30,913 nt of DNA from a virus. Positions 941 to 30,507 of this stretch are shown piece by piece. Under the pieces are notes generated by a model that saw only the letters and a list, made by a program, of their open reading frames with translations, ran no database searches and was not told the DNA's origin. The position numbers and the translations under genes were made by a program. Where the stretch lies: positions 1-30,913 of the IMG/VR virus record IMGVR_UViG_3300043775_000620, one strand, 5' to 3'. How positions within the stretch are numbered: position 1 is the stretch's first letter; each line of letters begins with the position of its first letter.

Positions 941-1089
941 CCTGTTGCTGTTTGGTATGCTTGAACTAATTTTTTAATTTCGCCCACGTTTCTCGGTAAG
1001 TTTATTTTAATTTGTCTACCTGTTTTTTTGAGTATGTATATTTCAACTACTGCTATCATTTGTCCGTATGTAGGTTGATTAGTAGACAT
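931..1089 (-). CDS. Small hypothetical protein (52 aa), below the ORF-track cutoff
   Basis: Hand translation gives MSTNQPTYGQMIAVVEIYILKKTGRQIKINLPRNVGEIKKLVQAYQTATGQS. Its ATG overlaps the terL stop (TATGTCTACTAA), and its own stop lies in the terminator loop. Confidence 0.35.
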   Translation of the reverse strand: MSTNQPTYGQMIAVVEIYILKKTGRQIKINLPRNVGEIKKLVQAYQTATGQS

Positions 1090-2284
1090 AGTAATTACCT
1101 TTATTTGGATTGTCTAAATGATACGTTACATTATATCGTATTGCATCAATAGCATGGTTAAATGAATCGATATATAATTTACTTCCTTTGTTTAAGTATG
1201 CATAGTTATTAAATTCCTTTGCTATGTTGCTACTGCTTTCATCTACTATAATATCAAAGTCCAACATCATAGTAACACCGCTTTCAATAGTTCCTTTTTT
1301 AATTGGTTCAATATTTAAACCCTTGTGCCTTAAATCAACTATCAATCTATCTTCTGCGGAATCAGCTATAATAAGTTTGTTTGTTGCTACGTTTGAACAG
1401 ATAACTGCGAGTTGTTCCATTCGTAAACCATTCTGATATAAATGTTCTTTAACGTAAATCTTTTTATGGTCTTTGTCTATTGCTACTTCAATAAGTGTAT
1501 CAGGATCAATGCTAAAACCAAAGTCTAAACCAAATGAAGTTTGTAAATCATTTGGATTGAATTTTCCAAAACTCCAATTAGTGAATACAACTCCCTCTGC
1601 TTTTTCTAACCAACCGCCTAAAATTTGATGATTATATTTTTGCGGTCGCCTTACTTTCATATCTTCTATTTGAAGTATAAAAGATTCAGAAAGGTTTTCG
1701 TAGTTATCCAAGTAAGTAGTGTGAATGTAAGTAGTATCTTTTTTAATTATATTACTTCCATCTTTTACGCCTTTAGATTCAAAAAAACGTTTATAAATAA
1801 AATGCTCTTTTGTTGCAGGATTTAAAACTAAAATAACTCTATTTTGAATACCTTTTGCACGAATAGAAAAGTCTATTTTATCAAAAGTATCTTCATCAGT
1901 TAGCTCTTCGGCTTCATCTAATACCCAAGTAGTAACTCCAGCTAATGATTTTAAGTTTGCTGTTTGCGTTCCGCTACTTGTTTTAATACCTTTAAATAAG
2001 ATTTTAGAGCCTGTAATCTTATTTACAATTTCATCTTTAGTAATATAAAAATCGTGGCTTAAATCAGCCGTTTCAATCTTGTCAATAAATTCAGGAATAA
2101 TAGAAATGTGTGCGGAAGTTAGTGTATAACGTGTAAATAAAATAACGTGTCCTACTTCATAAGTAAGAAGTAATAAAAACGAATTAAGGGAGTAAGATTT
2201 CCCTGAACCCCTACCCCCTGTAATTACAAAGTATCTACTATCACTTCCTAATAAATTATATTTTTCATTAAGATTTATTTCCAA
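1079..2284 (-). CDS. terL: Terminase large subunit (PBSX/XtmB-like)
   Basis: Walker A in RYFVITGGRGSGKSYS, Walker B-like TTWVLDEAEE, and a C-terminal nuclease-like region. The 401-aa size and its position after a TerS-like ORF also fit. Confidence 0.9.
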   Translation of the reverse strand: MEINLNEKYNLLGSDSRYFVITGGRGSGKSYSLNSFLLLLTYEVGHVILFTRYTLTSAHISIIPEFIDKIETADLSHDFYITKDEIVNKITGSKILFKGIKTSSGTQTANLKSLAGVTTWVLDEAEELTDEDTFDKIDFSIRAKGIQNRVILVLNPATKEHFIYKRFFESKGVKDGSNIIKKDTTYIHTTYLDNYENLSESFILQIEDMKVRRPQKYNHQILGGWLEKAEGVVFTNWSFGKFNPNDLQTSFGLDFGFSIDPDTLIEVAIDKDHKKIYVKEHLYQNGLRMEQLAVICSNVATNKLIIADSAEDRLIVDLRHKGLNIEPIKKGTIESGVTMMLDFDIIVDESSSNIAKEFNNYAYLNKGSKLYIDSFNHAIDAIRYNVTYHLDNPNKGNYYVY

Positions 2285-2555
2285 TTTTAAATATATCTTT
2301 TATATTGAAATCGTTTAAATTGTGAGTTGTTTCAATTGTTTCTTTTGGTTTTCCACAACCGTATTCAATTAATAGTTTAGCTGCTGCAATTCTATCACGT
2401 GAATTTTCATCGCTATTAATCATAATAGAAGCTAATACTGCAAATGAATTTTCTACGTGTGGACTTGCTAAATCAACACCTTTCAATTCATTCTTTACTG
2501 ATGGTCTACCACCTTTATTACCAATAGTGCCTTTATTCTCTTTTCTCTTATCCAT
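2268..2555 (-). CDS. Putative terminase small subunit
   Basis: 95 aa with a basic N-terminus (GNKGGRPS) and an RIAAAKLLIEYGCGKP motif common in small terminase-like proteins. It overlaps the terL start by 17 nt. Confidence 0.5.
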   Translation of the reverse strand: MDKRKENKGTIGNKGGRPSVKNELKGVDLASPHVENSFAVLASIMINSDENSRDRIAAAKLLIEYGCGKPKETIETTHNLNDFNIKDIFKIGNKS

Positions 2556-2571
2556 AATCAGTATAAATTAG

Positions 2572-2943
2572 TTAACTGATTTGCACTTCGTAAACTCTTT
2601 CAATTTCTCTAATCATATCTCGCCAACAAGAACCGCAAGAAGTTGTCTTAAAATCAATGCTAAACACTTCCTTATAAATAATTTTTAAACGTTCCTGTAC
2701 TTTAATTGTAAGTTGTTCAGGTTTGTTTGGTAAAAATTCAGTTAACCAAGTAACGTTATCTTCTGAAATGCAATTTGGTTGTCTGTAACTCCAAAGTTTA
2801 TTAAGTGCGTCTTTACGTTCTTCGCAACCGCAGTCAATCCCTGTTACTTCAGAAATTTTATCTACAACTGCTTTTATACCTGTTGCAGTTGTGATTTGTT
2901 CTATTGTATCGCCTAATCCTTTTGGCTTTCTTCCTCTTGCCAT
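2572..2943 (-). CDS. Hypothetical Cys-containing protein (123 aa)
   Basis: Intact ORF with GRKPKGLGDTIEQITTATGIK at the N-terminus and CGC...CGSC cysteine pairs. Function not recognised. Confidence 0.65.
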   Translation of the reverse strand: MARGRKPKGLGDTIEQITTATGIKAVVDKISEVTGIDCGCEERKDALNKLWSYRQPNCISEDNVTWLTEFLPNKPEQLTIKVQERLKIIYKEVFSIDFKTTSCGSCWRDMIREIERVYEVQIS

Positions 2944-2948
2944 ATTTT

Positions 2949-3491
2949 TTATTTTAAATTATTATAATCTTCTTGGAATAACTCCCTTAATTTTTTCTTG
3001 TGTGCTTTTAGCGAGTGGAATATACTTACAAAACTTATTCCTGTTTCTTTTGCTAATTTACGCATTGATATATCGTTATCCCTATAAATTGTAAATAGCT
3101 TTTTATCGTACATGTCCCAACTGTTTACTTCCGCTTCGCATTTGGTTCTAAATTTATACCATTCAATTTCATAATCTTCATCAAAGTTATCTTCTATTGG
3201 TATATCAATTTGTTGTTCTGTTACAAACATATTAGTTTTATCAGTAACATATATTTTTTTATTTAAAGATTCCTCATTGTATTTATTATAAAATTGCGAC
3301 AAATATACTGAACGAATAACAATAAATAAATAACCTTTGTTTAGTTTACCATTTGTAAAGCATTTTTCTTCGCTTGAATATTGATGTAATTTTAAATATG
3401 TTTCTGAAACTATATCTTCATAGTAAGAGCCATCAAATATCTTTGCATATTCGAGAAGCTGATTATGATGTTGATATAATTTCTCTAACAT
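2949..3491 (-). CDS. Phage-encoded sigma-70 family (ECF-like) sigma factor
   Basis: Region-2-like YEDIVSETYLKLHQY and a region-4-like HTH (ISMRKLAKETGISFVSIFHSLKAHKKKLRELF). 180 aa. Confidence 0.6.
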   Translation of the reverse strand: MLEKLYQHHNQLLEYAKIFDGSYYEDIVSETYLKLHQYSSEEKCFTNGKLNKGYLFIVIRSVYLSQFYNKYNEESLNKKIYVTDKTNMFVTEQQIDIPIEDNFDEDYEIEWYKFRTKCEAEVNSWDMYDKKLFTIYRDNDISMRKLAKETGISFVSIFHSLKAHKKKLRELFQEDYNNLK

Positions 3492-3567
3492 TTTTTAAAA
3501 TAAATCAGGAATAGCCAAACCTGAATTAATATAATTTTATCGTAAATAAGAACGTTGCTATTTTTTA

Positions 3568-3575
3568 CAAATGTA
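3568..3575 (-). promoter_or_regulatory. Bacteroidota-type -7 box (TACATTTG) upstream of the sigma factor gene
   Basis: Matches TAnnTTTG on the minus strand in the 103-nt intergenic gap; TTTG elements lie 15 to 22 nt upstream. Confidence 0.4.
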
Positions 3576-3594
3576 TACAAAAAATAAATACAAA

Positions 3595-3852
3595 TTACAA
3601 ATTTATTTTTTCAAAACTAACAAAATTATCAAAATAATCAATTTCGATGTTAAAACCTTCTTGTAAATGTGATTTATCTGTGTATCTATATTCTAAAACC
3701 CAATGCCAATGCTCTGATTTATCAATCCGTTTTGATGGTTTTCGAGTTTCTTTTACTACTCCGATAAGTCTAAATGGTCTTTGACTTGGTGCGGTTTGAT
3801 TTCTTAAATCTGTGTATATCTTTGAACCCTTAACAATATAAAATAATTTCAT
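3595..3852 (-). CDS. Hypothetical protein (85 aa)
   Basis: Intact ORF whose start overlaps the upstream gene's stop by 4 nt (ATGA-type coupling). Confidence 0.6.
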   Translation of the reverse strand: MKLFYIVKGSKIYTDLRNQTAPSQRPFRLIGVVKETRKPSKRIDKSEHWHWVLEYRYTDKSHLQEGFNIEIDYFDNFVSFEKINL

Positions 3853-4382
3853 TTTAATTCTTTTATTTTTTGTTTATAGATTGCAATAAGTTCTTTTACT
3901 TCATCTACGCTTAATTTAAGAGGTTTGTGTCGTATTTCTAATAGTTCGCTATATTCTTTATCACTTATAACATTTTGAAGTCTTAAATCGTATTCTTTTA
4001 CGTTTCCGTGTTTATGTAGGTTACATTCTACGCATTGACCATGTACGTTATTTTCATTAAATCGTAAGTTAGGATATGCTCCAACAGAAAAGAAATGCCC
4101 AGCGTGAAAAGTTTTACCTAAATTTTTACCACAAGAAATACAAGGTTTAAGTTTGTCTCTTTGGCGTATGTAAGTGTTAAAAACTTTCTGCAAGATATTT
4201 AAGTAATCAGATTTACTCATTAATTTTATTTTGATTTCTTTTTTTTCTTGCTTCCAATTTTTAGCGTTTTGCTTTTTCATATACTCAACTGCACAAGATG
4301 GACTACAAACTATTTGAGTGCTGTTTTTAGGTGTAAACTTATCTTTACAAACTAAACATTTCCTTTCGTATATTTTAAGCAT
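3849..4382 (-). CDS. ninG: NinG/Rap-family recombination endonuclease
   Basis: N-terminal CxxC...C...C and a C-terminal CISCGK...HAGHFFSVGAYPNLRFNENNVHGQCVECNLHKHGN signature typical of lambda NinG-like proteins. Confidence 0.8.
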   Translation of the reverse strand: MLKIYERKCLVCKDKFTPKNSTQIVCSPSCAVEYMKKQNAKNWKQEKKEIKIKLMSKSDYLNILQKVFNTYIRQRDKLKPCISCGKNLGKTFHAGHFFSVGAYPNLRFNENNVHGQCVECNLHKHGNVKEYDLRLQNVISDKEYSELLEIRHKPLKLSVDEVKELIAIYKQKIKELK

Positions 4383-7161: not shown

Positions 7162-7656
7162 TTAAAGATTAATAAATTCTTGTTGTTGTTGTGTTGTAAT
7201 TGTGTATTTAGATTTGATTTGTTCCAATGAAAAGCCACCTTGTTTTGCTTTAAGTAAAATTTCAGTTGTTGCATTTGGTTTGTTTTGAACTGCTTTTTGT
7301 CCGTCGTCGTCATCTGCACCCACGCAAACAAAAGATTGCAATGCGTAACGTCTTGCGTAGCTTATTCCGCTACCTTGTGCCTGTGCATCGTTTTGTTTAT
7401 TGTAGATAATTTCAGTAAGCGAGTCCATTAACTCGCCTGATTCATGAAGTAAAATAGTTTTTACAAAGTTTTTTCCTTCAACGTGAACAATAGGTTGTAA
7501 TACACTAATTCCGTTTTCGTTTAACGTAGGTATAACTGCCTCACGTATTGCGTTTAAATCAGCGTATTTTGATTTAAAGAATGGATTTGTAGCACCTTTT
7601 TTAGGGTTGCTCATTTCAGATTGTGCCTTAAGTAAGGCAGTTGCAATTTGTTTCAT
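7162..7656 (-). CDS. erf: ERF-family single-strand annealing protein
   Basis: ALLKAQSEM...NPFFKSKYADL and SYARRYALQ motifs typical of the ERF/P22 Erf family, followed by an acidic DDDDG tract. Confidence 0.8.
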   Translation of the reverse strand: MKQIATALLKAQSEMSNPKKGATNPFFKSKYADLNAIREAVIPTLNENGISVLQPIVHVEGKNFVKTILLHESGELMDSLTEIIYNKQNDAQAQGSGISYARRYALQSFVCVGADDDDGQKAVQNKPNATTEILLKAKQGGFSLEQIKSKYTITTQQQQEFINL

Positions 7657-9065: not shown

Positions 9066-9875
9066 TTAAAATAAAGTTTCTTGTTTCTGATTAATTAATG
9101 TTTTTGCAAATCCATATTCTTCAATATCTTTTAGTTTCTGATATTCCTCATCAATCCAATGTGAAGATAATTTATGAAAATCTTTTTTAATTTCAAAACC
9201 AAAAGCACGCCTTTTCAATTCTTGTGCAGCTATTAAGGTGCTTCCACTTCCAGCGCAAGGGTCGATAACTACATCGCCTTCATCACTAAAAATTTTAATT
9301 AGATTTTTTAAAACTTCTTGCGGTTTTTGAGTAGGGTGTATTTTTTCGCTATTTGTATCACGAACCCAATCCATGCAATTAAAAATCATTTTACCTTTAT
9401 TATTAAATTTTGGTAATTTTTCACGATATAATATTAATGCATATTCGCAATTACCTACAACCTTCATATTAGCTTTTAAAACCTGTGCCGAGAAGTTTTT
9501 TCTAAATACTAAATTTATATAATGATTAAATCCGTATTTTTTAGCTTTTTCAATAAGTTCAAATTGTTGTTCAAATTCACAAAATACAATCATACAAGGA
9601 CTTTTGCCTTTTTCTTTTGGTTCTTTAATTAACATAGTTGAACAGAAATGTAAAAATTCTGTAATTCTAAAATCTTTATCAGTATCAAAAAATTCTTTCC
9701 CTGCAAGTTCACTTTCTCCATTTGAGTTATCTCCGTCTTTATACCATGCTGGATTACTTGCATAAGCGTTATTTCCTAAATTATAAGGTATATCTGCTAT
9801 TACAAGTTGCGCTTTTGGTATAGCGTATGTTTTAAAATTTTGGAAATGGTTGTTAAATATTTGTGCTTTTTTCAT
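9066..9875 (-). CDS. Beta-class N6-adenine/N4-cytosine DNA methyltransferase (N6_N4_Mtase-like)
   Basis: Motif IV variant ADIPYNLG near the N-terminus and the SAM motif VVIDPCAGSGST near the C-terminus (IV...I order). No adjacent restriction endonuclease. Confidence 0.85.
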   Translation of the reverse strand: MKKAQIFNNHFQNFKTYAIPKAQLVIADIPYNLGNNAYASNPAWYKDGDNSNGESELAGKEFFDTDKDFRITEFLHFCSTMLIKEPKEKGKSPCMIVFCEFEQQFELIEKAKKYGFNHYINLVFRKNFSAQVLKANMKVVGNCEYALILYREKLPKFNNKGKMIFNCMDWVRDTNSEKIHPTQKPQEVLKNLIKIFSDEGDVVIDPCAGSGSTLIAAQELKRRAFGFEIKKDFHKLSSHWIDEEYQKLKDIEEYGFAKTLINQKQETLF

Positions 9876-10030
9876 CTTTTTAAATCGTATTTAATTACTT
9901 CTTTTAGTTTTGGATCTGTATTATTTGCCACTTCAATAGCTTTCAATTTGCTGTCTTTTTGAATTTCGTAATAGGTCGGTATTCTTTTACCTACTGCTAC
10001 TATTGTTTTACGTTTGGATAATTTTCCCAT
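9872..10030 (-). CDS. Small hypothetical protein (52 aa)
   Basis: Hand translation gives MGKLSKRKTIVAVGKRIPTYYEIQKDSKLKAIEVANNTDPKLKEVIKYDLKR. Its stop overlaps the methyltransferase ATG (ATGA). Confidence 0.35.
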   Translation of the reverse strand: MGKLSKRKTIVAVGKRIPTYYEIQKDSKLKAIEVANNTDPKLKEVIKYDLKR

Positions 10031-10529
10031 ATTCTTTAAAATCTTCGTTAGTCCATTTTGTATAAAGCTTATCTTTAAGATATGTTTTTTTGTGTCTTAA
10101 ATTAGTAGCCACTTCTAAAATGTGAGGTCTTTTAATTTTTGGCTTTATTTCGTCTATTTTATTTTTTCTAATTGTTATAATGTTTGGTTTTGATAATCTT
10201 TTTACTTTAACTCTTGATGCATTGTAATCGTTAATTTCTTTTGTTTTTGCTTCTAAAAACTCATTTGATTTTTGAAGTAAAGACTTATCTTTATTTTGAT
10301 AGCATTCTAAAATCAATTTGAAATAAATATCATCTTTATAACTATTGTAAGTTCTTAAAATATAAAATATAGTGCTCCTATCTTTTTTAATTTTTTTAGC
10401 AATTTCTACAATACTCATATTTTCGATATTTTCTTTTGCATAAATAGCTCTTAAATAAATAAACAATTTGTCACGTTTATTTGTTGTTATGTCTATTCCG
10501 TAAAATTCTTTAATTTCAAATGGTGTCAT
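10008..10529 (-). CDS. DnaA domain-IV-like HTH DNA-binding protein
   Basis: KRDKLFIYLRAIYAKENIENMSIVEIAKKIKKDRSTIFYILRTY parallels the DnaA C-terminal pattern (R..aMYL....S..eIg....dHsTV). Confidence 0.45.
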   Translation of the reverse strand: MTPFEIKEFYGIDITTNKRDKLFIYLRAIYAKENIENMSIVEIAKKIKKDRSTIFYILRTYNSYKDDIYFKLILECYQNKDKSLLQKSNEFLEAKTKEINDYNASRVKVKRLSKPNIITIRKNKIDEIKPKIKRPHILEVATNLRHKKTYLKDKLYTKWTNEDFKEYGKIIQT

Positions 10530-10785
10530 CGTAATTCATTTTAGATTCGTAAATGTGGTAAGTTTCAATAATTGTTTTCTCAATAATAGTAGTATGCATT
10601 TTTCTTTGATATCCGTTACTATCCAAAATTAATTCCATTTGTTCTTTTGAGTAGTATGGGATTCGTGCCTTTCCTATATTTTGTTTATGTACTTCTTTTA
10701 TACCTAACTTATTAATTATTTTGTTTATTGAACTTCTATGCTTTTGAGCTTTATTAGCTATAAATTCAACTGTATAAAATTCCAT
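10516..10785 (-). CDS. Small HTH-like DNA-binding protein (89 aa)
   Basis: The N-terminal YTVEFIANKAQKHRSSINKIINKLGI resembles an excisionase/MerR-type HTH. Confidence 0.4.
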   Translation of the reverse strand: MEFYTVEFIANKAQKHRSSINKIINKLGIKEVHKQNIGKARIPYYSKEQMELILDSNGYQRKMHTTIIEKTIIETYHIYESKMNYDDTI

Positions 10786-11156
10786 TACTCTAATTCTAAA
10801 ATTTTCATTACTTCTTCAGGACGTTTAGCGTATTCTTTTATGATTAAATCCATTTGATGATAATCAGTTAAAACTCTTTTACTCATAGTTTCAAAAAGGT
10901 TTTCCATACTTTTAAAAATCTCATCTACTCTTTGAGTATCTACGTCGTCCATCTTTTCGAACTCTTTACGCTCTGCATTGATTAAAATGTTAATACAAGG
11001 CCTTAAAACTTCTTTTAAACGCCCTTTGTAATATTTACTATGTTTGAGTACTTCGTTACAATGTAAAGCGTACTGATTCGCTAAAACGCTTTTTGCTAAT
11101 GCTGTATTGAATATTACTTCTAAATATTCTTCTTGTGTCATTTCTTTAGTTTCCAT
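10785..11156 (-). CDS. Hypothetical helical protein (123 aa)
   Basis: Start moved to ATG 11156 (METKEMTQ), because the track's first 12 codons overlap the upstream small ORF. Confidence 0.6.
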   Translation of the reverse strand: METKEMTQEEYLEVIFNTALAKSVLANQYALHCNEVLKHSKYYKGRLKEVLRPCINILINAERKEFEKMDDVDTQRVDEIFKSMENLFETMSKRVLTDYHQMDLIIKEYAKRPEEVMKILELE

Positions 11157-11274
11157 TTTGTTTGTTTTTATAGTTCTCAAAAAACTGGTCAAGTAATATT
11201 ATTTCATTTGGTGTTAGCTCGTTAAATGATTTTCCGTTAACGAGCCATTTTCCGTTTATTAATTCAATTCGCAT
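11146..11274 (-). CDS. Small hypothetical protein (42 aa)
   Basis: Hand translation gives MRIELINGKWLVNGKSFNELTPNEIILLDQFFENYKNKQNGN. Both ends overlap neighbouring genes. Confidence 0.3.
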   Translation of the reverse strand: MRIELINGKWLVNGKSFNELTPNEIILLDQFFENYKNKQNGN

Positions 11275-11417
11275 ATCTCTCTTATTTTTACAAATGGGTT
11301 ATTATGTCTAAATCTTGCAAATGCTTCATCAAAAGATGCAGCTTCTATTATCTTCTCGCAATCTATACAATCGTCATTTTTATGGCGCCAGTAATATACT
11401 TTAAATTTTTTCATCAT
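11259..11417 (-). CDS. Small hypothetical protein (52 aa)
   Basis: Hand translation gives MMKKFKVYYWRHKNDDCIDCEKIIEAASFDEAFARFRHNNPFVKIREICELN. Its start overlaps the end of 11401..11619. Confidence 0.3.
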   Translation of the reverse strand: MMKKFKVYYWRHKNDDCIDCEKIIEAASFDEAFARFRHNNPFVKIREICELN

Positions 11418-11619
11418 TAAATAAATTATCTACGTTTTCAATTAGTGTTTTCTCTCCTGTTGTTTCTTGCATTAAAAATATAACGCTTTCAAATCTTAAG
11501 TTAGTCCAAGCGACTTCACTTTTCAATTCGCATATTACTTTTTTAGCTGTAAATCTGTAAGGGCAAGTTTTTAGTTTAGATCTATTTTCCTTGCTTAATT
11601 TTTTCCAAAGTGTTTTCAT
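11401..11619 (-). CDS. Hypothetical protein, tandem paralog B (72 aa)
   Basis: Shares MKTLW-x2-LSKEN and a central WTNL motif with the adjacent 73-aa ORF. Confidence 0.65.
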   Translation of the reverse strand: MKTLWKKLSKENRSKLKTCPYRFTAKKVICELKSEVAWTNLRFESVIFLMQETTGEKTLIENVDNLFNDEKI

Positions 11620-11620
11620 G

Positions 11621-11842
11621 TTATTTGTTGTAAAAAAGTCCGTATAAAAGTGTTATAAAATCTTTATCGTAAGCAGTTAAATCGTGAAGTATAGTGTTTG
11701 AAGTTGATACTGTTAAATTAGTCCAGCCATAATTGTTTTTTAATTCTTCAATAATATTTTCATATATTGAAGGATATTTTTTTTGGTTCTCTAATAAAAT
11801 TAATTGATTTTCTTTTGATAATCGTTCCCAAAGTGTTTTCAT
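11621..11842 (-). CDS. Hypothetical protein, tandem paralog A (73 aa)
   Basis: Shares MKTLW-x2-LSKEN and a central WTNL motif with the adjacent 72-aa ORF. Confidence 0.65.
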   Translation of the reverse strand: MKTLWERLSKENQLILLENQKKYPSIYENIIEELKNNYGWTNLTVSTSNTILHDLTAYDKDFITLLYGLFYNK

Positions 11843-11958
11843 TATTTTTTAGTTTTAAAGATTAATATTCCGCATATAATTAATGCGCCTGTCATTACAA
11901 TAAAATTATCGGTACTCATTCCGATAGTTGCAACTGATAAAAAGATAATTGTTTTCAT
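11842..11958 (-). CDS. Small hydrophobic peptide (38 aa), first gene of the leftward early operon
   Basis: Hand translation gives MKTIIFLSVATIGMSTDNFIVMTGALIICGILIFKTKK. Its ATG is 22 nt downstream of the -7 box at 11980..11987, and a TAATG overlap links it to the next gene. Confidence 0.35.
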   Translation of the reverse strand: MKTIIFLSVATIGMSTDNFIVMTGALIICGILIFKTKK

Positions 11959-11979
11959 GTTTTAAATATTTTGATATTG

Positions 11980-11987
11980 CAAATGTA
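11980..11987 (-). promoter_or_regulatory. Leftward early promoter -7 box (TACATTTG)
   Basis: TAnnTTTG match on the minus strand in the divergent intergenic region. Confidence 0.5.
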
Positions 11988-12034
11988 TAATGAAAAAACT
12001 TTATAAAAAATTTTTTTATTAAAAAAGTTATTTA

Positions 12035-12042
12035 TATATTTG
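12035..12042 (+). promoter_or_regulatory. Rightward promoter -7 box (TATATTTG) for the plus-strand island
   Basis: TAnnTTTG match on the plus strand, 22 nt before ATG 12064. Confidence 0.5.
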
Positions 12043-12063
12043 CAGAAATCAAAAATTAATTAT

Positions 12064-12267
12064 ATGAACTATTACAAATTTAAAAGAAGTAACAACGGAA
12101 CTTTGAAATTTATTATTAAAGTAAATCAAAAACACATTTCACCTAATGATGGTTGTGTTTACTATTCTGAAGAAGAAATAAATAATATAAAAGATTTTTT
12201 TGTAGTTGAAAAAATGCGAGTAGTAAAAAATGGTAAAACGTGGATTAATTCTAAAATAAAAAATTAA
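12064..12267 (+). CDS. Hypothetical protein (67 aa)
   Basis: ORF-track frame, with the start moved to ATG 12064 because the TTG at 12040 lies inside the putative -7 box. Confidence 0.55.
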   Translation: MNYYKFKRSNNGTLKFIIKVNQKHISPNDGCVYYSEEEINNIKDFFVVEKMRVVKNGKTWINSKIKN

Positions 12268-12270
12268 TAT

Positions 12271-12462
12271 ATGAAAATAACAACAGAAACAAAAGAGCAA
12301 TTGTACATCACCGAATTTAAAAATTCAGATGTATCTTTAGAACAATTATTTGATGCGTTTAAATCACACCTTGTGGCGTTAACTTGGCATCCTATTACGA
12401 TTCAACAATATATAATAGAATGGTCAAATGAATTAAAAGAAAATAACAATGAAAATAATTGA
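12271..12462 (+). CDS. Small acidic hypothetical protein (63 aa)
   Basis: Intact ORF starting 3 nt after the previous stop. Confidence 0.55.
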   Translation: MKITTETKEQLYITEFKNSDVSLEQLFDAFKSHLVALTWHPITIQQYIIEWSNELKENNNENN

Positions 12463-12562
12463 ATTTTTAAAACAACTATTTTGTAACCACAGATGGACTT
12501 ACAATTACAAAAAGAATTATTACAGATGTAAAGATTGTAAATTTAAAATTAATAAGATATGA
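12449..12562 (+). CDS. Small Cys/His-containing hypothetical protein (37 aa)
   Basis: Hand translation gives MKIIEFLKQLFCNHRWTYNYKKNYYRCKDCKFKINKI (CxH...CxxC). Both ends overlap neighbouring genes. Confidence 0.3.
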   Translation: MKIIEFLKQLFCNHRWTYNYKKNYYRCKDCKFKINKI

Positions 12563-12813
12563 AATATAAAATAATTTTTTTTAGTGCTTTTATAATTGAA
12601 ATATGCTCAACTTTTTACATTAAATATACGGCAGATAATAATATTATCGGTATGGTTGTGTTTGCTTTTATCGGGCCTTTTTTATCTTTGCCATTTATGG
12701 GTTATATGGTAGAAAGTAAAATTTGGAAAGAGAGAATTAAAATTACTTTTTGTATGGCATTGGGATATTCATTTGGGGCATTAATTGTAAACTATATAAT
12801 TAAAATTTTATAA
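12559..12813 (+). CDS. Small integral membrane protein (84 aa, about 3 TM segments)
   Basis: Hydrophobic stretches IIFFSAFIIEICSTFYI, IIGMVVFAFIGPFLSLPFMGYMV and ITFCMALGYSFGALIVNYII. Confidence 0.6.
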   Translation: MKYKIIFFSAFIIEICSTFYIKYTADNNIIGMVVFAFIGPFLSLPFMGYMVESKIWKERIKITFCMALGYSFGALIVNYIIKIL

Positions 12814-12814
12814 G

Positions 12815-13021
12815 ATGAACATATTAGAAAAACTAATTTCAGAAAATGCGAAAAATAAAAATCAATTCGCTAAACTTGTAGGTGAAACACCTCAAACAAT
12901 TAACGCACAGGTAAAGTCAAAGAATCCATTATTACCAGCGTACAATTACGCAAAAATTTTAGGTAAAAAAGAATTGAAAGGAAATGCAAACGGAGTAGAA
13001 ATACATTTGATATTTGGTTAA
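12815..13021 (+). CDS. Small XRE/Cro-like HTH protein (68 aa)
   Basis: KNQFAKLVGETPQTINAQVKS resembles a helix-turn-helix core. Confidence 0.45.
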   Translation: MNILEKLISENAKNKNQFAKLVGETPQTINAQVKSKNPLLPAYNYAKILGKKELKGNANGVEIHLIFG

Positions 13022-13157
13022 CGTTCCCACGCTTGGCGAAGGTGGCGATTTTAACCACGAATGCCAATGCGGAGAACGTAACTTGAATATAGCAGTAAAT
13101 GTCAAGCGGAGTACTGCACCGCCACTTTTGCCAAACGTGTGTTAACCGCTGTTTTTT
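13021..13157 (+). ncRNA. Candidate structured RNA element or leader of unknown class upstream of the RNA ligase
   Basis: Locally GC-rich non-coding stretch. A long irregular hairpin pairs 13021..13037 with 13063..13079. GCAGTA (13092..13097) pairs with TACTGC (13112..13117), interleaved with GCGG (13106..13109) pairing to CCGC (13119..13122). Several mutually exclusive pairings exist, and the element ends in a T6 run. Confidence 0.35.
13140..13155. repeat. Left arm of the 16-nt inverted repeat bracketing the ligase ORF (TGTTAACCGCTGTTTT)
   Basis: Reverse complement of 14102..14117 at 15 of 16 positions. Confidence 0.9.
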
Positions 13158-13182
13158 ATTAATCAAATTAAAATTTATAAAT

Positions 13183-14103
13183 ATGTTTAAAAAGTATCAA
13201 CATTTAGAAAGATTTGGAACTACAGAAGTTCAAAACATTGAATTAGGAGAATGTTATATATTCCCAAAAATTGACGGAACAAATGCAAGTGTATGGCTTC
13301 ATAACGGAGAAATACAAGCTGGAAGCCGAACACGTCATTTATCACTTGAAAAAGACAATGCTGGATTTTTAGATTGGGTTTTAAAACAAGAAAACTTATT
13401 AAATTATCTAAAAGAAAATCCAACACATAGACTTTTCGGAGAATGGCTTGTCCCACACTCTTTGAAAACTTACAGAAACGATGCTTGGAGAAAGTTTTAT
13501 GTTTTTGAAGTTGTAGAAGATAGATTAGAAAATGAATTGCAACACGAGAGCGATGAAAAATTTAACTATTTGCATTATAACGATTATAAGCCATTATTAG
13601 AGAAATACGAAATTGATTTTATACCGCCTATTGCTGTAATTAGAAATAGTAATTACGAACAAATAGTAAATCAATTAATGAAAAATGATTTTCTTATTGA
13701 AGATGGCAAAGGTTACGGAGAAGGAATTGTCTTAAAAAATTACGATTTTAAAAATAAATATGGTCGTAAAACTTGGGCTAAAATTGTAACAAGTGAGTTT
13801 AAAGAAAAACACGCTAAAGTTATGGGTAGAACAACTATTGAAGGTAAAAAAATGGTTGAAGAACTAATTGCTGAAAAATATGTTACAACTGCTTTTTGCG
13901 AAAAAGAGTTTGCAAAAATTGAAAGCGTTGATGGTTGGAGCAGTAAAATGATACCAAGATTATTGAATGTTATTTACTATGAAATTGTAAAAGAGGAATG
14001 CTGGAATTTTGTTAAAGAAAATCGTAACCCGACTATTAATTTTAAAACGCTTCAACATTTCGTTTTCGCTAAAGTTCGTGAAATATTACCGAACGTCTTT
14101 TAA
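13183..14103 (+). CDS. ATP-dependent RNA ligase, Rnl2-like (covalent nucleotidyltransferase superfamily)
   Basis: Motif I KIDGTN (Lys29), motif III-like LFGEWL, motif IV EGIVLK, motif V-like TWAKIV, and a helical C-terminal domain with no OB-fold-sized extension. Start set at ATG 13183; the track's upstream 28 codons lie in the structured non-coding region. Confidence 0.75.
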   Translation: MFKKYQHLERFGTTEVQNIELGECYIFPKIDGTNASVWLHNGEIQAGSRTRHLSLEKDNAGFLDWVLKQENLLNYLKENPTHRLFGEWLVPHSLKTYRNDAWRKFYVFEVVEDRLENELQHESDEKFNYLHYNDYKPLLEKYEIDFIPPIAVIRNSNYEQIVNQLMKNDFLIEDGKGYGEGIVLKNYDFKNKYGRKTWAKIVTSEFKEKHAKVMGRTTIEGKKMVEELIAEKYVTTAFCEKEFAKIESVDGWSSKMIPRLLNVIYYEIVKEECWNFVKENRNPTINFKTLQHFVFAKVREILPNVF

Positions 14104-14117
14104 AATAGCGGTTAACA
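14102..14117. repeat. Right arm of the 16-nt inverted repeat (AAAATAGCGGTTAACA)
   Basis: Reverse complement of 13140..13155; overlaps the ligase stop codon. Confidence 0.9.
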
Positions 14118-14121
14118 GTCT

Positions 14122-14157
14122 GATTGGCGATGGTTTTAATCTCGCCAATCATTTGTT
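14122..14157 (+). terminator. Hairpin with a T-rich tail downstream of the ligase (candidate terminator or processing hairpin)
   Basis: GATTGGCGA-N11-TCGCCAATC (9 bp) followed by ATTTGTT. The arms are related to the upstream hairpin (TTGGCGA...GCCAAT). Confidence 0.5.
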
Positions 14158-14181
14158 ATAAATTAAATAAATAAATAAATT

Positions 14182-14391
14182 ATGGATAAAACAATTATTA
14201 TAAAATCCTTGCAATGTTATATAACAAGGAAAACGCAAAAGATAAATCGAATTAATAGAATTATTTTAAATGACCCTGGTTGTGAAAATTTACAGAATTT
14301 AAAAAGAGGATTAAGGCATAACAAGGCATTGATAAAAAGAGCTGAACAGCAAATTTTATTCTTTGAGAATTTTGTTTTTAATAAACTATAA
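14182..14391 (+). CDS. Hypothetical basic protein (69 aa)
   Basis: Intact ORF; its 3' end converges on and overlaps 14386..14955 by 6 nt. No family recognised. Confidence 0.45.
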   Translation: MDKTIIIKSLQCYITRKTQKINRINRIILNDPGCENLQNLKRGLRHNKALIKRAEQQILFFENFVFNKL

Positions 14392-14955
14392 AGAACTACC
14401 AACTACAACACCCAACACAACACCAATCGGCAAAGCGTACTTATAGAAATTATTTGTGCGCTTTTGCTTTTTAATAAACTTCTCTTGCTTTTTTGCAAGT
14501 TCAATTAAATTTTTCTCTTTTACTTCAAATTGACCTATAATACTATCTTTAAAAATACCTGCAGTTTTTTCATTTCCTAACATTTCAGTAGTAACAACAT
14601 ACATACTATCTACATAATCGCAATCAACTAAACGCAAAGCAATTTCTAAACTATCTTTGTCTTTTAAAACTACTTTAGGATTTATGCGTTTTAAGGCACT
14701 TTTTTTATTTTTGTATAGTCTTTGTAGTTCAGATTGTTTCTTTTGATTCTGACTATCTAAAAACGCTATTGTGTCACGATATTTAGATATTACTTCTTTA
14801 TTTATGGAATCATTTTTTACTTTTACTTCTTTATAGACTAATTTAGGTGCAGGACTTTCGCAACCTCTAAAAAGCATAAATACTAAAAGCACCACAAAAG
14901 CAATAAACCAAATGTTTAATCGCTTAATAAAATTGTATAGATTAATTTGTATCAT
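14386..14955 (-). CDS. Membrane protein with an N-terminal signal/lipobox-like Cys and a C-terminal TM anchor (u-spanin-like architecture)
   Basis: N-terminus KRLNIWFIAFVVLLVFMLFRGC(32)ESPAP; extreme C-terminus YALPIGVVLGVVVGSSL; the middle is charged and helical. Confidence 0.6.
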   Translation of the reverse strand: MIQINLYNFIKRLNIWFIAFVVLLVFMLFRGCESPAPKLVYKEVKVKNDSINKEVISKYRDTIAFLDSQNQKKQSELQRLYKNKKSALKRINPKVVLKDKDSLEIALRLVDCDYVDSMYVVTTEMLGNEKTAGIFKDSIIGQFEVKEKNLIELAKKQEKFIKKQKRTNNFYKYALPIGVVLGVVVGSSL

Positions 14956-15139
14956 TAGTAATATCTTTTAATTGTTTAAAAATTTGCTCTTGATTTTCTC
15001 CCCAGAACATTTCACATTTCCCATCTTTATAAGGCGGTTCTGTGAAGTAACTTTGCCACATTCCATCTATTGCTTTATACCTTTTGCAATTATCTTTTAA
15101 TGGGCAATTAAAACCGCTACATTTTGTTATATCACTCAT
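14942..15139 (-). CDS. Small Cys-rich hypothetical protein (65 aa)
   Basis: TKCSGFNCPLKDNCKRY...GKCEMFW cysteine pattern; overlaps both neighbours. Confidence 0.6.
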   Translation of the reverse strand: MSDITKCSGFNCPLKDNCKRYKAIDGMWQSYFTEPPYKDGKCEMFWGENQEQIFKQLKDITNDTN

Positions 15140-15285
15140 TGTAATTCATCTTTAATATTTTGATAATCATAACCTGCACTAATCAATAAGTTAGTTATAA
15201 TTTCAATTATTTCTTCTGTTGTTAAGTCATCATAATCACATTCGAAAGTATGCTTTTTTTTGTGTGCCTCGATTTGTATTTTCAT
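15136..15285 (-). CDS. Small acidic hypothetical protein (49 aa)
   Basis: Hand translation gives MKIQIEAHKKKHTFECDYDDLTTEEIIEIITNLLISAGYDYQNIKDELQ. ATGA-type overlaps at both ends fill an otherwise empty gap. Confidence 0.35.
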   Translation of the reverse strand: MKIQIEAHKKKHTFECDYDDLTTEEIIEIITNLLISAGYDYQNIKDELQ

Positions 15286-16187
15286 AAAAAGTTATTTGTT
15301 TTAAATTTTAAATAATTCATATAAGCCGAATTACCTATTTCGTTAGTACTATCACAGTCATCACATTGCATAAGCCTTTTAATAGTTCCTAAAGCAGTAA
15401 CATTATTTTTAAGCAAAGTTACATTTTCTGAACCGCAACAACTACAACTATATTTTAGGTTTCCGCCTAAAACTCCAGCGTGAGTATTTGGTTTTATATA
15501 ATTTTGCATTGTTAAGAAAACATCTTCTAAAACTATAATATCGCCTTCGCAATAAACTACCATTTCTTGCATTGCTTCTTTAGAGCCTTTTAAAACGTCT
15601 TTCCACATATCAAAACCTCTATGTTGAACCTTTGCCCCTACTCCTAAAAATTGTGCTATGTAATCGAGTTTATTAGAATTAAAATTAAATCCGTTTTTAG
15701 CTTTCTTTAAAGTATCTAAAGTTTTATATTGTGGGAACATTGGCACTCGGTGGAAAATACATCTTGTTCTAATCCATTTAATATCGAATCTATCACCATT
15801 ATGAGCAATAAGTTCATCAGCAGTATTAGCAACATTTACAAAATCGATTAACATTTGCTTGTCGCATTTGTTTTTATCCCACGTTAACGAATGTATTTTA
15901 TCTTCGCTTTCCCATTTGTACGAAATACAAATTATTTTCCTTTCTTCGATTATATCATGAGGTTGTAGACTTAAATTGTAACCTATACGCCACGCATAAC
16001 ATATATTTGGGCTTGTTTCGATATCAAAAAATAATCTTCTTATTTGATTTTGTGGCTCTCGAAGTTTTAATAGTTCAACTTCTTGCTCTTTTGAAAGCCT
16101 GTAACGATTTCTTAAATTAAATTCAAGTCCTAACTTTCTTACTTCTGCATTATTTAACCTATAACGTCTGTTTTTGTTTGGTTTCAT
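15282..16187 (-). CDS. DnaQ/RNase H-fold 3'-5' exonuclease with a C-terminal zinc ribbon
   Basis: Exo I FFDIETS, Exo II HNGDRFDIKW, Exo III YCEGDIIVLEDVF, and C-terminal CSCCGS...CDDCDS. Confidence 0.7.
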   Translation of the reverse strand: MKPNKNRRYRLNNAEVRKLGLEFNLRNRYRLSKEQEVELLKLREPQNQIRRLFFDIETSPNICYAWRIGYNLSLQPHDIIEERKIICISYKWESEDKIHSLTWDKNKCDKQMLIDFVNVANTADELIAHNGDRFDIKWIRTRCIFHRVPMFPQYKTLDTLKKAKNGFNFNSNKLDYIAQFLGVGAKVQHRGFDMWKDVLKGSKEAMQEMVVYCEGDIIVLEDVFLTMQNYIKPNTHAGVLGGNLKYSCSCCGSENVTLLKNNVTALGTIKRLMQCDDCDSTNEIGNSAYMNYLKFKTNNFL

Positions 16188-16244
16188 AATTATTTATGTT
16201 TGTTATTACGGACAATAAAGGCTTTTTTGTTTATAATAACGGAT

Positions 16245-16622
16245 TTACCAACGTGCTTTTCTTCCTCTATGGTCGTAATGCGTGAAAGTAGGGTAAACTC
16301 CTACACCGCCTTCTTTCATTTTACCTTGTTCAATAAGTCCTTCAATTACTAAAGCCACTTCTTTAGGTGTCATTCCTGCAACTTTAATATCCGCAGCAGT
16401 ACCTCTTAAATGTTGGCTATCTTTTACAGCTCCAGGTAATTTAGCATTATATTTCGGACTTCTGTAACCGCTTGTAATTGTAATAGGTTTATTTATTGCA
16501 GTTCGTAATACTTCAAGATTTCGTGCAAGTTCAACAATATTTGAAAGTGCGCTGTTTGGAATATCTCCGCCATCTTTACACTTAAATTCTTCTAAACTAA
16601 AATTAGTCGTTATTTTTGCCAT
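16245..16622 (-). CDS. Endolysin, peptidase M15 (L-alanyl-D-glutamate / D-Ala-D-Ala peptidase-like)
   Basis: SGYRSPKYN...SQHLRGTAADI...THYDHRG matches the Zn-binding H..D...H signature of Peptidase_M15_3-like phage lysins. Confidence 0.85.
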   Translation of the reverse strand: MAKITTNFSLEEFKCKDGGDIPNSALSNIVELARNLEVLRTAINKPITITSGYRSPKYNAKLPGAVKDSQHLRGTAADIKVAGMTPKEVALVIEGLIEQGKMKEGGVGVYPTFTHYDHRGRKARW

Positions 16623-16776
16623 CTTTTTTATTTTTAATTAATTCAATAGTTTTCATAATCGTGTAAACAATAGAAACGCATAATAATAATATTTTTAAAG
16701 TAGCCTCTACATTTGAAAAGCTAATAGCCATTGTTAGTGTATTCAATGCGTATAATCTTAAATCGTTAATTTGCAT
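16603..16776 (-). CDS. Small membrane protein (57 aa), second holin/antiholin-like gene; below the ORF-track cutoff
   Basis: Hand translation gives MQINDLRLYALNTLTMAISFSNVEATLKILLLCVSIVYTIMKTIELIKNKKDGKNND. It overlaps the holin stop and the endolysin start. Confidence 0.4.
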   Translation of the reverse strand: MQINDLRLYALNTLTMAISFSNVEATLKILLLCVSIVYTIMKTIELIKNKKDGKNND

Positions 16777-16966
16777 TTTTAGCTTTCATTAAACGTTCTA
16801 CAATATTTGTTGCTCCTTCTATTGCTATGTAAGATGTTGCAATAATTACCCAATCAGTTGACGTAATAACACCACTAAATAAACCTGCTGATGCTACAAC
16901 AAAAACAGTTAATTTTCTACTTACCCATTTTGAAAGGAATAAGTCTATTTGTTCTTTTCTACTCAT
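16766..16966 (-). CDS. Putative holin (66 aa, two TM segments)
   Basis: LTVFVVASAGLFSGVI and WVIIATSYIAIEGA hydrophobic segments with a charged C-terminus; located upstream of the endolysin. Confidence 0.5.
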   Translation of the reverse strand: MSRKEQIDLFLSKWVSRKLTVFVVASAGLFSGVITSTDWVIIATSYIAIEGATNIVERLMKAKNAN

Positions 16967-17156
16967 TCGGTATAAATTCTATTCGTTCTAAATCAATTAG
17001 TCTATGATATATTTCTTTAAACTCTTTGCAGTCTAAAACTTCAAGTCCTACTATCCATCTATTTAAACCATCTTTAGCAAACTCCAAACGATAACAATTA
17101 TTTGTATATCCGTTAAGTTCGTTATATTGTTCTTCTGTTGCGTGTAGTACTATCAT
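16959..17156 (-). CDS. Hypothetical protein (65 aa)
   Basis: Intact ORF with overlapping, coupled ends. Confidence 0.55.
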   Translation of the reverse strand: MIVLHATEEQYNELNGYTNNCYRLEFAKDGLNRWIVGLEVLDCKEFKEIYHRLIDLERIEFIPNE

Positions 17157-18016
17157 AATCCTGTCATATATGTATTAATTGCATTTACAAAATCCGTGTT
17201 TTCAGAAACTAAAGAAGCACCCATTGCATACATAGAAATTTCACTTGCCCCATAAGTACTTGCATTTCTTAAAATATATTGATTTGCATTTGGTAACCCT
17301 GTTGATGTTTGCGTTCTTGCCCCTGAAACAATACCATTAAATAAAGTTACATTTGTTAAACTTGTTCTGTGTATTGATTTTGTAGGTGTACCTGTTGCAA
17401 ATGAAAAAGCACTTGTAGGAACTCCAACTAAAGGATTTGAAGAGTTAATTCTTTGAGCTGTACTACTTGAGAATTGAGAGTTATTTATAGTTGTAGTTGT
17501 ACCATCTAAAGTGGTATTCATTGCACTACCTGAAAACACATAAAAATAACGACTCGCATTATTTAAAGTGTAATTACTTCCATTTGCAGTAGGATTGAAT
17601 TTTGTATCAATATATGCACTTGAACCATTTCCTGTAAAACCTTCTTTAGTTGTAAAAGTTGGACTTGAAACCGCTTCGTATTGCAATAATCTTTTCCAAT
17701 CTATTAAAGCAAATTGACTATTTCCATCAGTTGCAAATAAAGCAAATGTATCTAATTTATTCCAAATACCCGCAGCTTTTAAATCAATCAATAACTGATT
17801 CTGTTTTAATTTTACAGCATCACTTGGTAAAGTATAACCATTTGTTGTTGCATAGTCTAAAATAGATTGATAATCTACATCATAAGCAAAACCTACAATA
17901 TTAGTATCGCCTGCCCAACTATTAGCGTGAACAGAACCCCAACTAATATTATTATTAACTGCACCTTGCCCCCAACCTATATTATTATTTTTCGCTCCTT
18001 GTCCCCAATCGCTCAT
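17153..18016 (-). CDS. Putative tail fibre / receptor-binding protein
   Basis: N-terminal tandem WGQGAxNNNI(G/S) repeats and an S/T/N/G-rich beta-type remainder. It has its own TATATTTG box and lies just before the lysis cassette. Confidence 0.5.
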   Translation of the reverse strand: MSDWGQGAKNNNIGWGQGAVNNNISWGSVHANSWAGDTNIVGFAYDVDYQSILDYATTNGYTLPSDAVKLKQNQLLIDLKAAGIWNKLDTFALFATDGNSQFALIDWKRLLQYEAVSSPTFTTKEGFTGNGSSAYIDTKFNPTANGSNYTLNNASRYFYVFSGSAMNTTLDGTTTTINNSQFSSSTAQRINSSNPLVGVPTSAFSFATGTPTKSIHRTSLTNVTLFNGIVSGARTQTSTGLPNANQYILRNASTYGASEISMYAMGASLVSENTDFVNAINTYMTGL

Positions 18017-29995: not shown

Positions 29996-30507
29996 TTCTT
30001 ATTAATTGTATATTGTAAAAATTGTTCAACATCCAAACCATACGCTTCAATTAATTCATCAGGCAAACGTTCAAATGCTTTCTCAAATGGTTTAGTAAAA
30101 AATAAACTCGGTTTAATACCATTCTTAAAAATACCTTTCGTAATTAAAAAAGCAGTTGATTTGTAACTCATAAATTTACCATTTTCTTTGTTACGAAATT
30201 GAAATCTTCTTTTTGTTACCCAATCTTGTATCGGTTTCAAAGGCGGTCTTTTGCTTTTATAACTAAATGGTGTGTCGTATTTCTTTTGCGTTCCTGAAAC
30301 CCCTTTGTCTTGGTAAGCTCCGTAATCTTCCATTAAAAAAGCCATTCTAAAACTATTAGCACCTACTTCAATTTCTTTATCTAAAGAGTTGTAAAGTTTC
30401 TTATCTACGTTTTTACCTTGCTTTGTTAAATTGCTCCTACTTTGTTGGATCACATATTTAGCAAATGCGTTTAAATACTCTTTTGTATTTTTATTATCTA
30501 ATTGCAT
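29992..30507 (-). CDS. Putative tail-completion / HK97 gp10-like protein (171 aa)
   Basis: Size, position and an N-terminal FAKYVIQQSRSNLTKQGKNVDKKLYNSL pattern loosely fit gp10-like proteins. Confidence 0.35.
   Translation of the reverse strand: MQLDNKNTKEYLNAFAKYVIQQSRSNLTKQGKNVDKKLYNSLDKEIEVGANSFRMAFLMEDYGAYQDKGVSGTQKKYDTPFSYKSKRPPLKPIQDWVTKRRFQFRNKENGKFMSYKSTAFLITKGIFKNGIKPSLFFTKPFEKAFERLPDELIEAYGLDVEQFLQYTINKK

Follow-up and report, generated by a model that had tools for sequence, protein, structure and literature searches.

An unusual feature of the 30,913-nt viral DNA analysed here (IMG/VR record IMGVR_UViG_3300043775_000620, positions 1 to 30,913; hereafter the window) is an RNA ligase gene enclosed, almost to the base, by a near-perfect 16-nt inverted repeat. 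The ligase belongs to a family that other phages use to mend cleaved tRNA. This raises the question as to what the repeat represents: an RNA stem that loops out the open reading frame (ORF), the ends of a transposon or invertible segment, or the mark of another kind of mobile unit. We put the probability at roughly 70% that the repeat represents, in two separated halves, the outer helix of an attC-like hairpin site, and that the ligase gene forms an integron-type cassette (about 13022-14115) together with the hairpin element ahead of it, here called E1. On this reading the unit is a mobile cassette, and an RNA stem, a transposon or an invertible segment does not primarily account for it.

The inverted repeat and the hairpin family at its edge

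The two arms, 13140-13155 (TGTTAACCGCTGTTTT) and 14102-14117 (AAAATAGCGGTTAACA), match as reverse complements at 15 of 16 positions. Only G13151 and T14106 do not, and this pair, as a G·U wobble on the transcribed strand, is the sole non-Watson-Crick position of the arm helix. In agreement with a first-pass annotation made from the sequence alone, the ligase ATG (13183) lies 27 nt downstream of the left-arm end, the second base of the TAA stop (14101-14103) is the first of the right arm, the symmetry continues outward as GCCAA-N5 / N6-TTGGC, and the flanks are GC-rich (0.41-0.46 versus 0.2-0.3 around them, in a genome of 30% GC). The hairpins it placed on both sides are present as well, the upstream one being larger than had been proposed: TTGGCGAAGGTGGCG (13033-13047) pairs with 13120-13134, and not with 13063-13067. 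By number alone such repeats do not stand out, with seven 16-nt inverted repeats (at most one mismatch, within 3 kb) in the window compared to 12 +/- 5.8 in dinucleotide shuffles, and with a repeat of this kind having at least six G/C in 20% of shuffles. GTTAAC is not enriched across the window (12 observed, 11 expected), and given this near-expected count it was rejected as an enriched motif or restriction-type signal. The significance of the repeat stems from conservation, covariation and a family-wide arm rule, and not from window statistics.

The left arm is the 3' edge of a conserved 126-nt element, a feature absent from the first-pass annotation. A search pattern of 17 bases from the 3' end of E1, run on a genome collection, recovered at least 120 genome stretches, almost all of them Bacteroidota among the matches listed, and these are copies of a strongly conserved element of ~126 nt. 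Some of the matches are contigs of metagenome-assembled genomes (MAGs) and possibly phage (L159, L190 and L200, the elements of the latter two resembling those of phage L115). For 35 aligned bacterial copies, the fold of one member was mapped onto the alignment and its pairs were counted: 85% of the mapped structure is paired, compared to 37-49% with the partners slid, and 14 pairs have changed on both sides, a number reached by 0 of 500 shuffles. RNAalifold gave no structure for the same alignment. A covariance model built from the bacterial copies alone (R1) scores E1 at 94.2 bits on the plus strand (E 1.8e-23, R1 E-values being rough due to a shortened calibration that leaves bit scores unaffected) and at 21.7 bits on the minus strand. 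R1 also identifies over 40 additional copies in related phage contigs, with few exceptions on the gene-sense strand, and with filters off it assigns 17.3 bits (E 9e-4) to E2, a short hairpin that follows the ligase gene. The cores (T/C)AAC...GTT(A/G) are invariant in 35/35 aligned bacterial copies and in E1 and E2; the outer four bases do not follow the purine/pyrimidine pattern (e.g. GGTTAAC / GTTAACC). Family members span about 46-190 nt, in line with the length of attC sites (about 57-141 nt), and retain the lower stem while the apical part varies. A search of Rfam with the window and one bacterial copy, at gathering and E-value thresholds, gave no matching family, and no ligase was found in the bacterial element loci. 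A contig labelled as a Nitrosotalea MAG (L159) has five elements within 2.2 kb (977-3124) and is probably a mis-binned phage or Bacteroidota contig.

How do the arms relate to these elements? The 12 nt after element n and the 12 nt before element n+1 pair at 8.8/12 positions in bacteria (n=61) and at 9.5/12 in phage (n=34), compared to 5.8/12 and 6.0/12 for random flank pairs (Mann-Whitney, p = 1e-21 and p = 4e-15, respectively). The two flanks of one and the same element, on the other hand, show no pairing above random (5.9/12 in bacteria, 5.8/12 in phage). Pairing covers positions 1-11 beyond the GTTA/TAAC core and ends before position 12, and the arms vary between cassettes within one genome. 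In the window, the complementary cassette ends are 13145-13155 and 14102-14112. Position 7 is G on the left and T on the right in 31/35 bacterial and 23/24 phage cassettes, and corresponds to G13151·T14106; G13151 thereby occupies a wobble position that is near-invariant in the family. The inverted repeat of the window, including its single mismatch, appears to be one instance of a general rule in which each cassette owns complementary ends, because both would derive from the two sides of one hairpin site, as in integrons. G·T outnumbers A·C by 63 to 10, which implies that one particular strand is under constraint. Since the arm rule and its wobble also hold in bacterial arrays with most ORFs on the opposite strand, the constraint is on one DNA strand and not on mRNA.

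Relatives, breakpoints and the empty site

We then asked what relatives of the locus reveal about the unit, using 30 viral loci retrieved by the ligase protein. Arms are present in nine ligase-bearing viral contigs, and left and right arms change together. Three contigs (L002, L003, L011) have arm cores identical to those of the window. L005 combines a left core GTTAGCCGC with a right core GCGGCTAAC (GTTAGC...GCTAAC), L009 and L014 combine GTTACCTGC with GCAGGTAAC (in L009, GTTACC...GGTAAC), and L004 combines GTTACCACTCG with GAGCGGTAAC. In L012, which has the L004-type left arm, the ligase match ends at residue 258 and no right arm is seen. The variants of L005, L009 and L014 establish that the arms covary. 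The L005 and L009 variants break the GTTAAC palindrome yet stay inverted, so that direct target duplication is ruled out, and a target-site-duplication model (GTTAAC or TTAA) was rejected on these variants. The same arm pair encloses other genes in L057, L107 and L011, and the hairpin 5' of the ligase in L011 opens with AAAATAGCGGTTAACG, i.e. the right-arm sequence. An exact 15-mer scan of IMG/VR gave mostly chance matches and was informative for L057, L107 and known relatives only. Numerous intergenic hairpins of these contigs have the form (stop)N-TAACG-stem...stem-TGTTA-N; the lower stem of E1 is common to L002 and L003.

That the repeat delimits a single-gene unit, as had been claimed, is borne out by its presence and absence among relatives in differing genomic contexts. 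In blastn comparisons of 10001-17000 with the arm-bearing loci, homology extends over 13126/13140-14116 only, with no relation between the neighbouring genes. The gene upstream of E1 (12815-13021, hereafter the backbone gene) has homologs at 94-100% amino acid identity in 13 viral contigs, which differ after its GG(G/T)TAA end, where various cassettes, a terminator or an empty site follow; L112, L115, L116 and L119 have other hairpin-led cassettes at this point. The junction after the backbone gene is the insertion hot spot. At the empty site of L113 and L114 (about 2704-2750 in L113), 45 nt of AT-rich spacer separate the backbone gene from a homolog of 14182-14391. L121 shares this spacer and has another gene after it. 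Synteny between L107 and the window is seen on both sides (11199-11958 and 15012-16635), with 5.9 kb of other small genes in between in L107.

A view of exchange comes from L009 and L014, which are 98-99% identical and have permuted cassette orders, lig-Z-Y (L009 3920-5713) versus lig-Y-Z' (L014 3920-5158). The breakpoints lie inside the shared AACG of the 5' core, with junctions at (T/C)AACG, and every hairpin moves together with its downstream gene. The alternative in which the hairpin is a property of the upstream gene, as in the canonical orientation, was rejected by this comparison. Together with the end of homology at 14116, the AACG breakpoints are compatible, at 4-nt resolution, with a G|TT / AA|C crossover. 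The cassette limits 13022-14115 were deduced from these breakpoints, the homology limits and the empty site.

Ligase genes at 80-89% nucleotide identity also occur without arms or hairpins, in L006, L007, L008 and L010 (gene about 3001-3918); these armless ligases may bear on the origin or decay of the cassette. In L007 the ligase is preceded by an ordinary terminator hairpin and a promoter-like TTTG..TATATTTG. In Cellulophaga phage phi19:3 (L001), whose gp003 has 76% nucleotide identity to the ligase gene, inverted arms are absent and a direct motif, TAATGTTAAC, lies on either side of the gene (2971-2980 and 3973-3982).

Recombinase-linked arrays, known systems and rival explanations

In bacteria, the elements form arrays located directly downstream of, and co-oriented with, a tyrosine recombinase gene (L145, L213, L223, L188). 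The recombinase resembles archaeal XerA (5hxy, E 1e-42, colinear alignment), and many of its members are named 'site-specific tyrosine recombinase/integron integrase' by NCBI. The reciprocal test, which took recombinase P0105 as its point of departure and made no use of the elements, finds arrays always after the recombinase gene and never before it. The P0105 loci (L256-L263; e.g. L262 715-8231 and L257 10001-19320) are on a Flavobacteriales mobilisable element with relaxase, MobC and ParA. Their arrays consist of resistance-type genes, with a copy of the 126-nt element between neighbours: a tet(X)-like monooxygenase, an ErmF-like protein, metallo- (Lactamase_B) and OXA-type beta-lactamases, sul, aadS, catB, dfr and aph. 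The recombinase is identical across the loci; gene order varies by strain, and the same arms accompany the same cassette.

The similarities to integrons are extensive. Like attC sites, the elements are imperfect hairpins, about 50-190 nt long, with AAC...GTT as cores and an apical part that varies; in bacteria they likewise form same-orientation arrays, parted by short ORFs and adjoining a tyrosine recombinase; the first bases of a cassette are complementary to its far end; breakpoints are compatible with G|TT / AA|C; and the bacterial arrays carry antibiotic-resistance genes. The family differs from integrons in having a 15-bp (4 + 11) outer helix with a fixed G·T in place of the 7-bp R box (R''=RYYYAAC, R'=G|TTRRRY), in a 126-nt element whose sequence is very highly conserved among many families of Bacteroidota, in a XerA-like recombinase that lacks the IntI domain, with phages devoid of a recombinase, and in phage ORFs being sense to the 'bottom-strand-like' orientation, with the hairpin ahead of the gene. 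Bacteroidota have been described as nearly devoid of integrons (PMC9024848; bioRxiv 2024.07.02.601686). Searches of open-access papers gave no description of an integron-like system in Flavobacteriaceae or Bacteroidota, and no match there to the element sequence as a text string.

The first-pass annotation knew of no described arrangement like this one, which is too strong a statement: complementary ends are inherent to integron cassettes, and attC-site clusters without an integrase (CALINs) have been reported in virulent phages, including two predicted sites in Polaribacter phage P12002L (Qi et al. 2023, PMC9892861). As in our case, those CALINs are in Flavobacteriia phages, with attC-like sites between small or methyltransferase genes; the cassette-arm rule, the 126-nt family and the link to Bacteroidota arrays are not part of that report. 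By inspection and hairpin scan, P12002L_attC1 (TGCTAACGG...CATTGTTAGGC) agrees with this family's short elements in end motifs and in length. The scan of P12002L (L135) gave at least four short elements on the minus strand (38879-38936, 38035-38090, 32223-32281 and 30008-30056), and the pair at 38.0/38.9 kb encloses the methyltransferase gene gp54 between complementary arms of its own. These short variants (about 50-60 nt) escape R1, so that they are placed in the family by pattern and fold. The left arms at 32223 and of cassette Y in L009/L014 are similar. A second parallel comes from Riemerella anatipestifer, where aph(3')-IVb, lnu(H) and blaRATA cassettes integrate without flanking homology, site-specifically and beside a cdf gene, each unit consisting of a gene, a short 5' leader and a ~140-bp attC-like 3' hairpin (2026 paper, PMC13148043). 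L262 shows a like arrangement of recombinase, cdf, element and APH, the likeness being one of layout. That report concerns a bacterium, calls the mechanism unresolved, does not name a recombinase and makes no link to phages (PMC13148043).

How could a cassette of this kind arrive in a phage? In the model that we favour, it would have inserted after the backbone gene, in the small variable region of the phage. In the predicted circular form, AAAATAGCGGT-TAAC and GTTA-ACCGCTGTTTT would close a single long hairpin as its 5' and 3' ends, respectively, around the E1 interior, and E1 would serve the ligase cassette as its recombination site. Recombination in the 5' core, which on this strand reads TAA|CG and complements the integron G|TT, would open the circle and leave the arms on either side of the ligase gene. 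The XerA-like recombinase of the bacterial arrays, or a relative of it in the host, presumably acts in trans on phage DNA folded as a single strand. The predicted circle junction reads ...AAAATAGCGGTTAA|CGTTCCCACGC... (CGTTCC after crossover). Transcripts of the phage operon include the hairpins in sense, and a secondary effect on mRNA stability or read-through is possible.

Several observations weigh against this model. No tyrosine recombinase is present in the 30.9-kb window or in any phage locus searched, including by tblastn of the bacterial recombinase, and the window holds only two family elements, E1 and E2, 969 nt apart with no recombinase nearby. The bacterial recombinase itself matches IntI4 and TIGR02249 in two pieces, skipping the IntI-specific domain, so that an adjacent integrase with that domain is lacking. 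ORFs are sense to the element in 30/34 phage intervals (1 antisense), compared to 37 antisense and 13 sense among 50 orientable bacterial intervals (loci including phage L133, L115, L107, L057 and L132, and bacterial L221, L169, L210 and others). Read from TAACG to TGTTA, the element is thus 3' of the ORF in bacteria as an attC site should be, and 5' of its gene in phage, unlike in canonical cassettes; in the window E1 lies ahead of the ligase. At the empty site, E2 is missing along with E1 and the ligase, for which a single cassette insertion cannot account. The apical part of E1 differs between contigs with 94%-identical ligase, implying that the hairpin is not inherited as a rigid block, and neither this apical part nor E2 as a whole varies in step with the ligase. 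P12002L_attC1 is the sole phage site that IntI1 did not recombine, in contrast to the other phage attCs (PMC9892861), a result that fits a different cognate enzyme. Finally, neither a circular intermediate nor a recombination event was observed here.

How well do other explanations fare against the integron-type cassette? The hairpins could be primarily transcription or RNA-stability signals, with shuffling a by-product of homologous or single-strand-annealing recombination (e.g. via ERF and NinG) as for the promoter early stem-loops (PeSLs) of T4-type phages, which are conserved intergenic stem-loops that flank non-essential genes and mediate modular shuffling, with mini-circles observed (PMC2839356, PMC4122927). 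Both systems have intergenic stem-loop motifs in hyperplastic regions, here between the small genes of a hypervariable region; ERF and NinG are encoded by the phage, T-runs follow many left arms, and ORFans with PeSLs at their borders, as well as PeSL mini-circles, are known (PMC2839356). PeSLs, however, combine a sigma-70-type early promoter with a stem-loop terminator and shuffle by homologous recombination. The stem-loop is present in our locus, but a promoter is found neither in nor next to E1 or the left arm: a scan of 11900-14500 for sigma-70 promoters and intrinsic terminators gave nothing above chance and nothing at E1 or the arms, and no Bacteroidetes-type TTG..TAnnTTTG motif is apparent on direct reading between the left arm and the ATG. 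Breakpoints fall within a 4-nt AACG and are not spread over conserved 20-30-nt stems; cassette flanks are complementary while those of single elements are random, a pattern that recombination between repeats would not predict; and the same elements occur in recombinase-linked bacterial arrays. With exact breakpoints and cassette-specific arms, a PeSL-like origin seems unlikely.

Less probable still, and by our estimate quite improbable, is that the arms pair in the polycistronic mRNA and loop out the ligase ORF for RNase III-type processing or translational gating, one of the possibilities raised in the first-pass annotation. Folding 13000-14180 does produce the arm-arm helix in minimum-free-energy and centroid structures, the only pair not of Watson-Crick type becomes a G·U in the transcript, and the arms covary; as in rRNA processing stems and T7 RNase III sites, complementary sequences flank a unit within a polycistronic transcript. 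As the cause of the pairing, though, an RNA stem is contradicted by the strand asymmetry of bacteria, where the same arm rule and G·T wobble hold for ORFs that are mostly antisense (37 versus 13), so that their mRNAs would bear C·A: the constraint follows the DNA strand, unlike in those RNase III stems. Moreover, cassette history accounts for the pairing without a role for RNA, ribosomes would cover the surroundings of the arms (the right arm begins in the stop codon), and ligase homologs at 80-89% nucleotide identity do without arms. The suggestion of terminal inverted repeats on a mobile or invertible cassette holds for the mobile single-gene unit and fails for transposon-type ends or an invertible segment. 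A 16-nt repeat does enclose one gene exactly, with GTTAAC at both ends, as in a non-autonomous transposon or the recombination sites of an invertible segment, but the hallmarks of such elements, terminal inverted repeats with direct target duplications and a cognate transposase, are not found together. A target-site duplication is absent, the L005 and L009 ends remaining inverted and not direct; neither transposase nor invertase was found in the window; the asymmetry of G on the left and A on the right (reverse complement) is constant, with the ligase inverted in none of about 10 contigs; and arms that vary by cassette could not all be recognised by one transposase. This origin is accordingly very improbable. 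A chance repeat in an AT-rich genome would be expected within the window alone, and is refuted by conservation, compensatory change and the family-wide rule to the point of being negligible.

A broader proposal, which we put forward tentatively and at somewhat less than even odds, is that Bacteroidota and their virulent phages share a largely unrecognised integron-like system with a XerA-like recombinase lacking the IntI domain, ~126-nt hairpins with a 15-bp G·T outer helix, and cassettes among which are clinically relevant resistance genes (tet(X)-like, ErmF-like, OXA-type and others), and that phage regions such as 13019-14158 are built by the same chemistry with the genes reversed. If so, phages would be both clients and vectors of a cassette pool in a phylum described as essentially integron-free. 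The cassette interpretation, if correct, would explain accessory-gene swaps in small Bacteroidota phages at exact, predictable boundaries, the cargo being an RNA ligase here and methyltransferases elsewhere, and would tie phages to the host cassette system that assembles multidrug-resistance arrays on Flavobacteriales mobilisable elements. It would also provide a candidate enzyme and a site definition (TAAC/GTTA core, 11-nt arm, position-7 G·T) for the Riemerella integration, and a concrete criterion by which to look for cassettes in a phylum from which standard integron tools return next to nothing.

Anatomy of the locus

The features of the locus are collected in Table 1. By the cassette rule, E2 would belong to the next gene; short elements like it are also present in L009, L014 and P12002L.

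Table 1 Features of the ligase cassette and its surroundings (window coordinates).
Feature	Position	Strand	Description
Backbone gene	12815..13021	+	68 aa, ...HLIFG*; stop TAA (13019-13021) inside the E1 5' core TAAC
E1, attC-like hairpin element	13019..13144	+	126 nt; 5' core TAAC 13019-13022, 3' core GTTA 13141-13144; long imperfect stem and variable apical part; fold z = -3.96
Left arm	13140..13155	+	T, GTTA core and 11-nt cassette-specific arm ACCGCTGTTTT (13145-13155)
Leader	13156..13182	+	27 nt, AT-rich; kept with the ligase in all arm-bearing relatives
RNA ligase family gene	13183..14103	+	306 aa; PF09414, E 2.3e-17; cassette cargo
Right arm	14102..14117	+	11-nt arm AAAATAGCGGT (14102-14112), TAAC core (14113-14116) and A
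Putative mobile unit	13022..14115	+	E1 interior, left arm, leader, ligase and right arm; assumes crossover TAA|C
E2, short family member	14113..14158	+	46 nt; TAACAG..GATTGGCGA-loop-TCGCCAATC..TTGTTA; fold z = -3.53
Downstream small gene	14182..14391	+	69 aa; last gene of the plus-strand island

The ligase lies within a 2.4-kb plus-strand island (11958-14391) of an otherwise minus-strand genome, and a Bacteroidetes-type -7 box (TATATTTG) is located at 12035-12042, just upstream of the first plus-strand ORF of the island. A tRNA/tmRNA scan of the window found none. Elsewhere, the phage encodes NinG (3852-4382), an ERF-type single-strand annealing protein (7165-7656) and an N6/N4 DNA methyltransferase (9069-9875), recombination functions that could join in cassette exchange. 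Lastly, the chance analysis of inverted repeats brought to light a 17-nt near-perfect inverted repeat in minus-strand genes, with arms 2 kb apart at 15437-15453 (AACAACTACAACTATAT) and 17485-17501 (TTATAGTTGTAGTTGTA).

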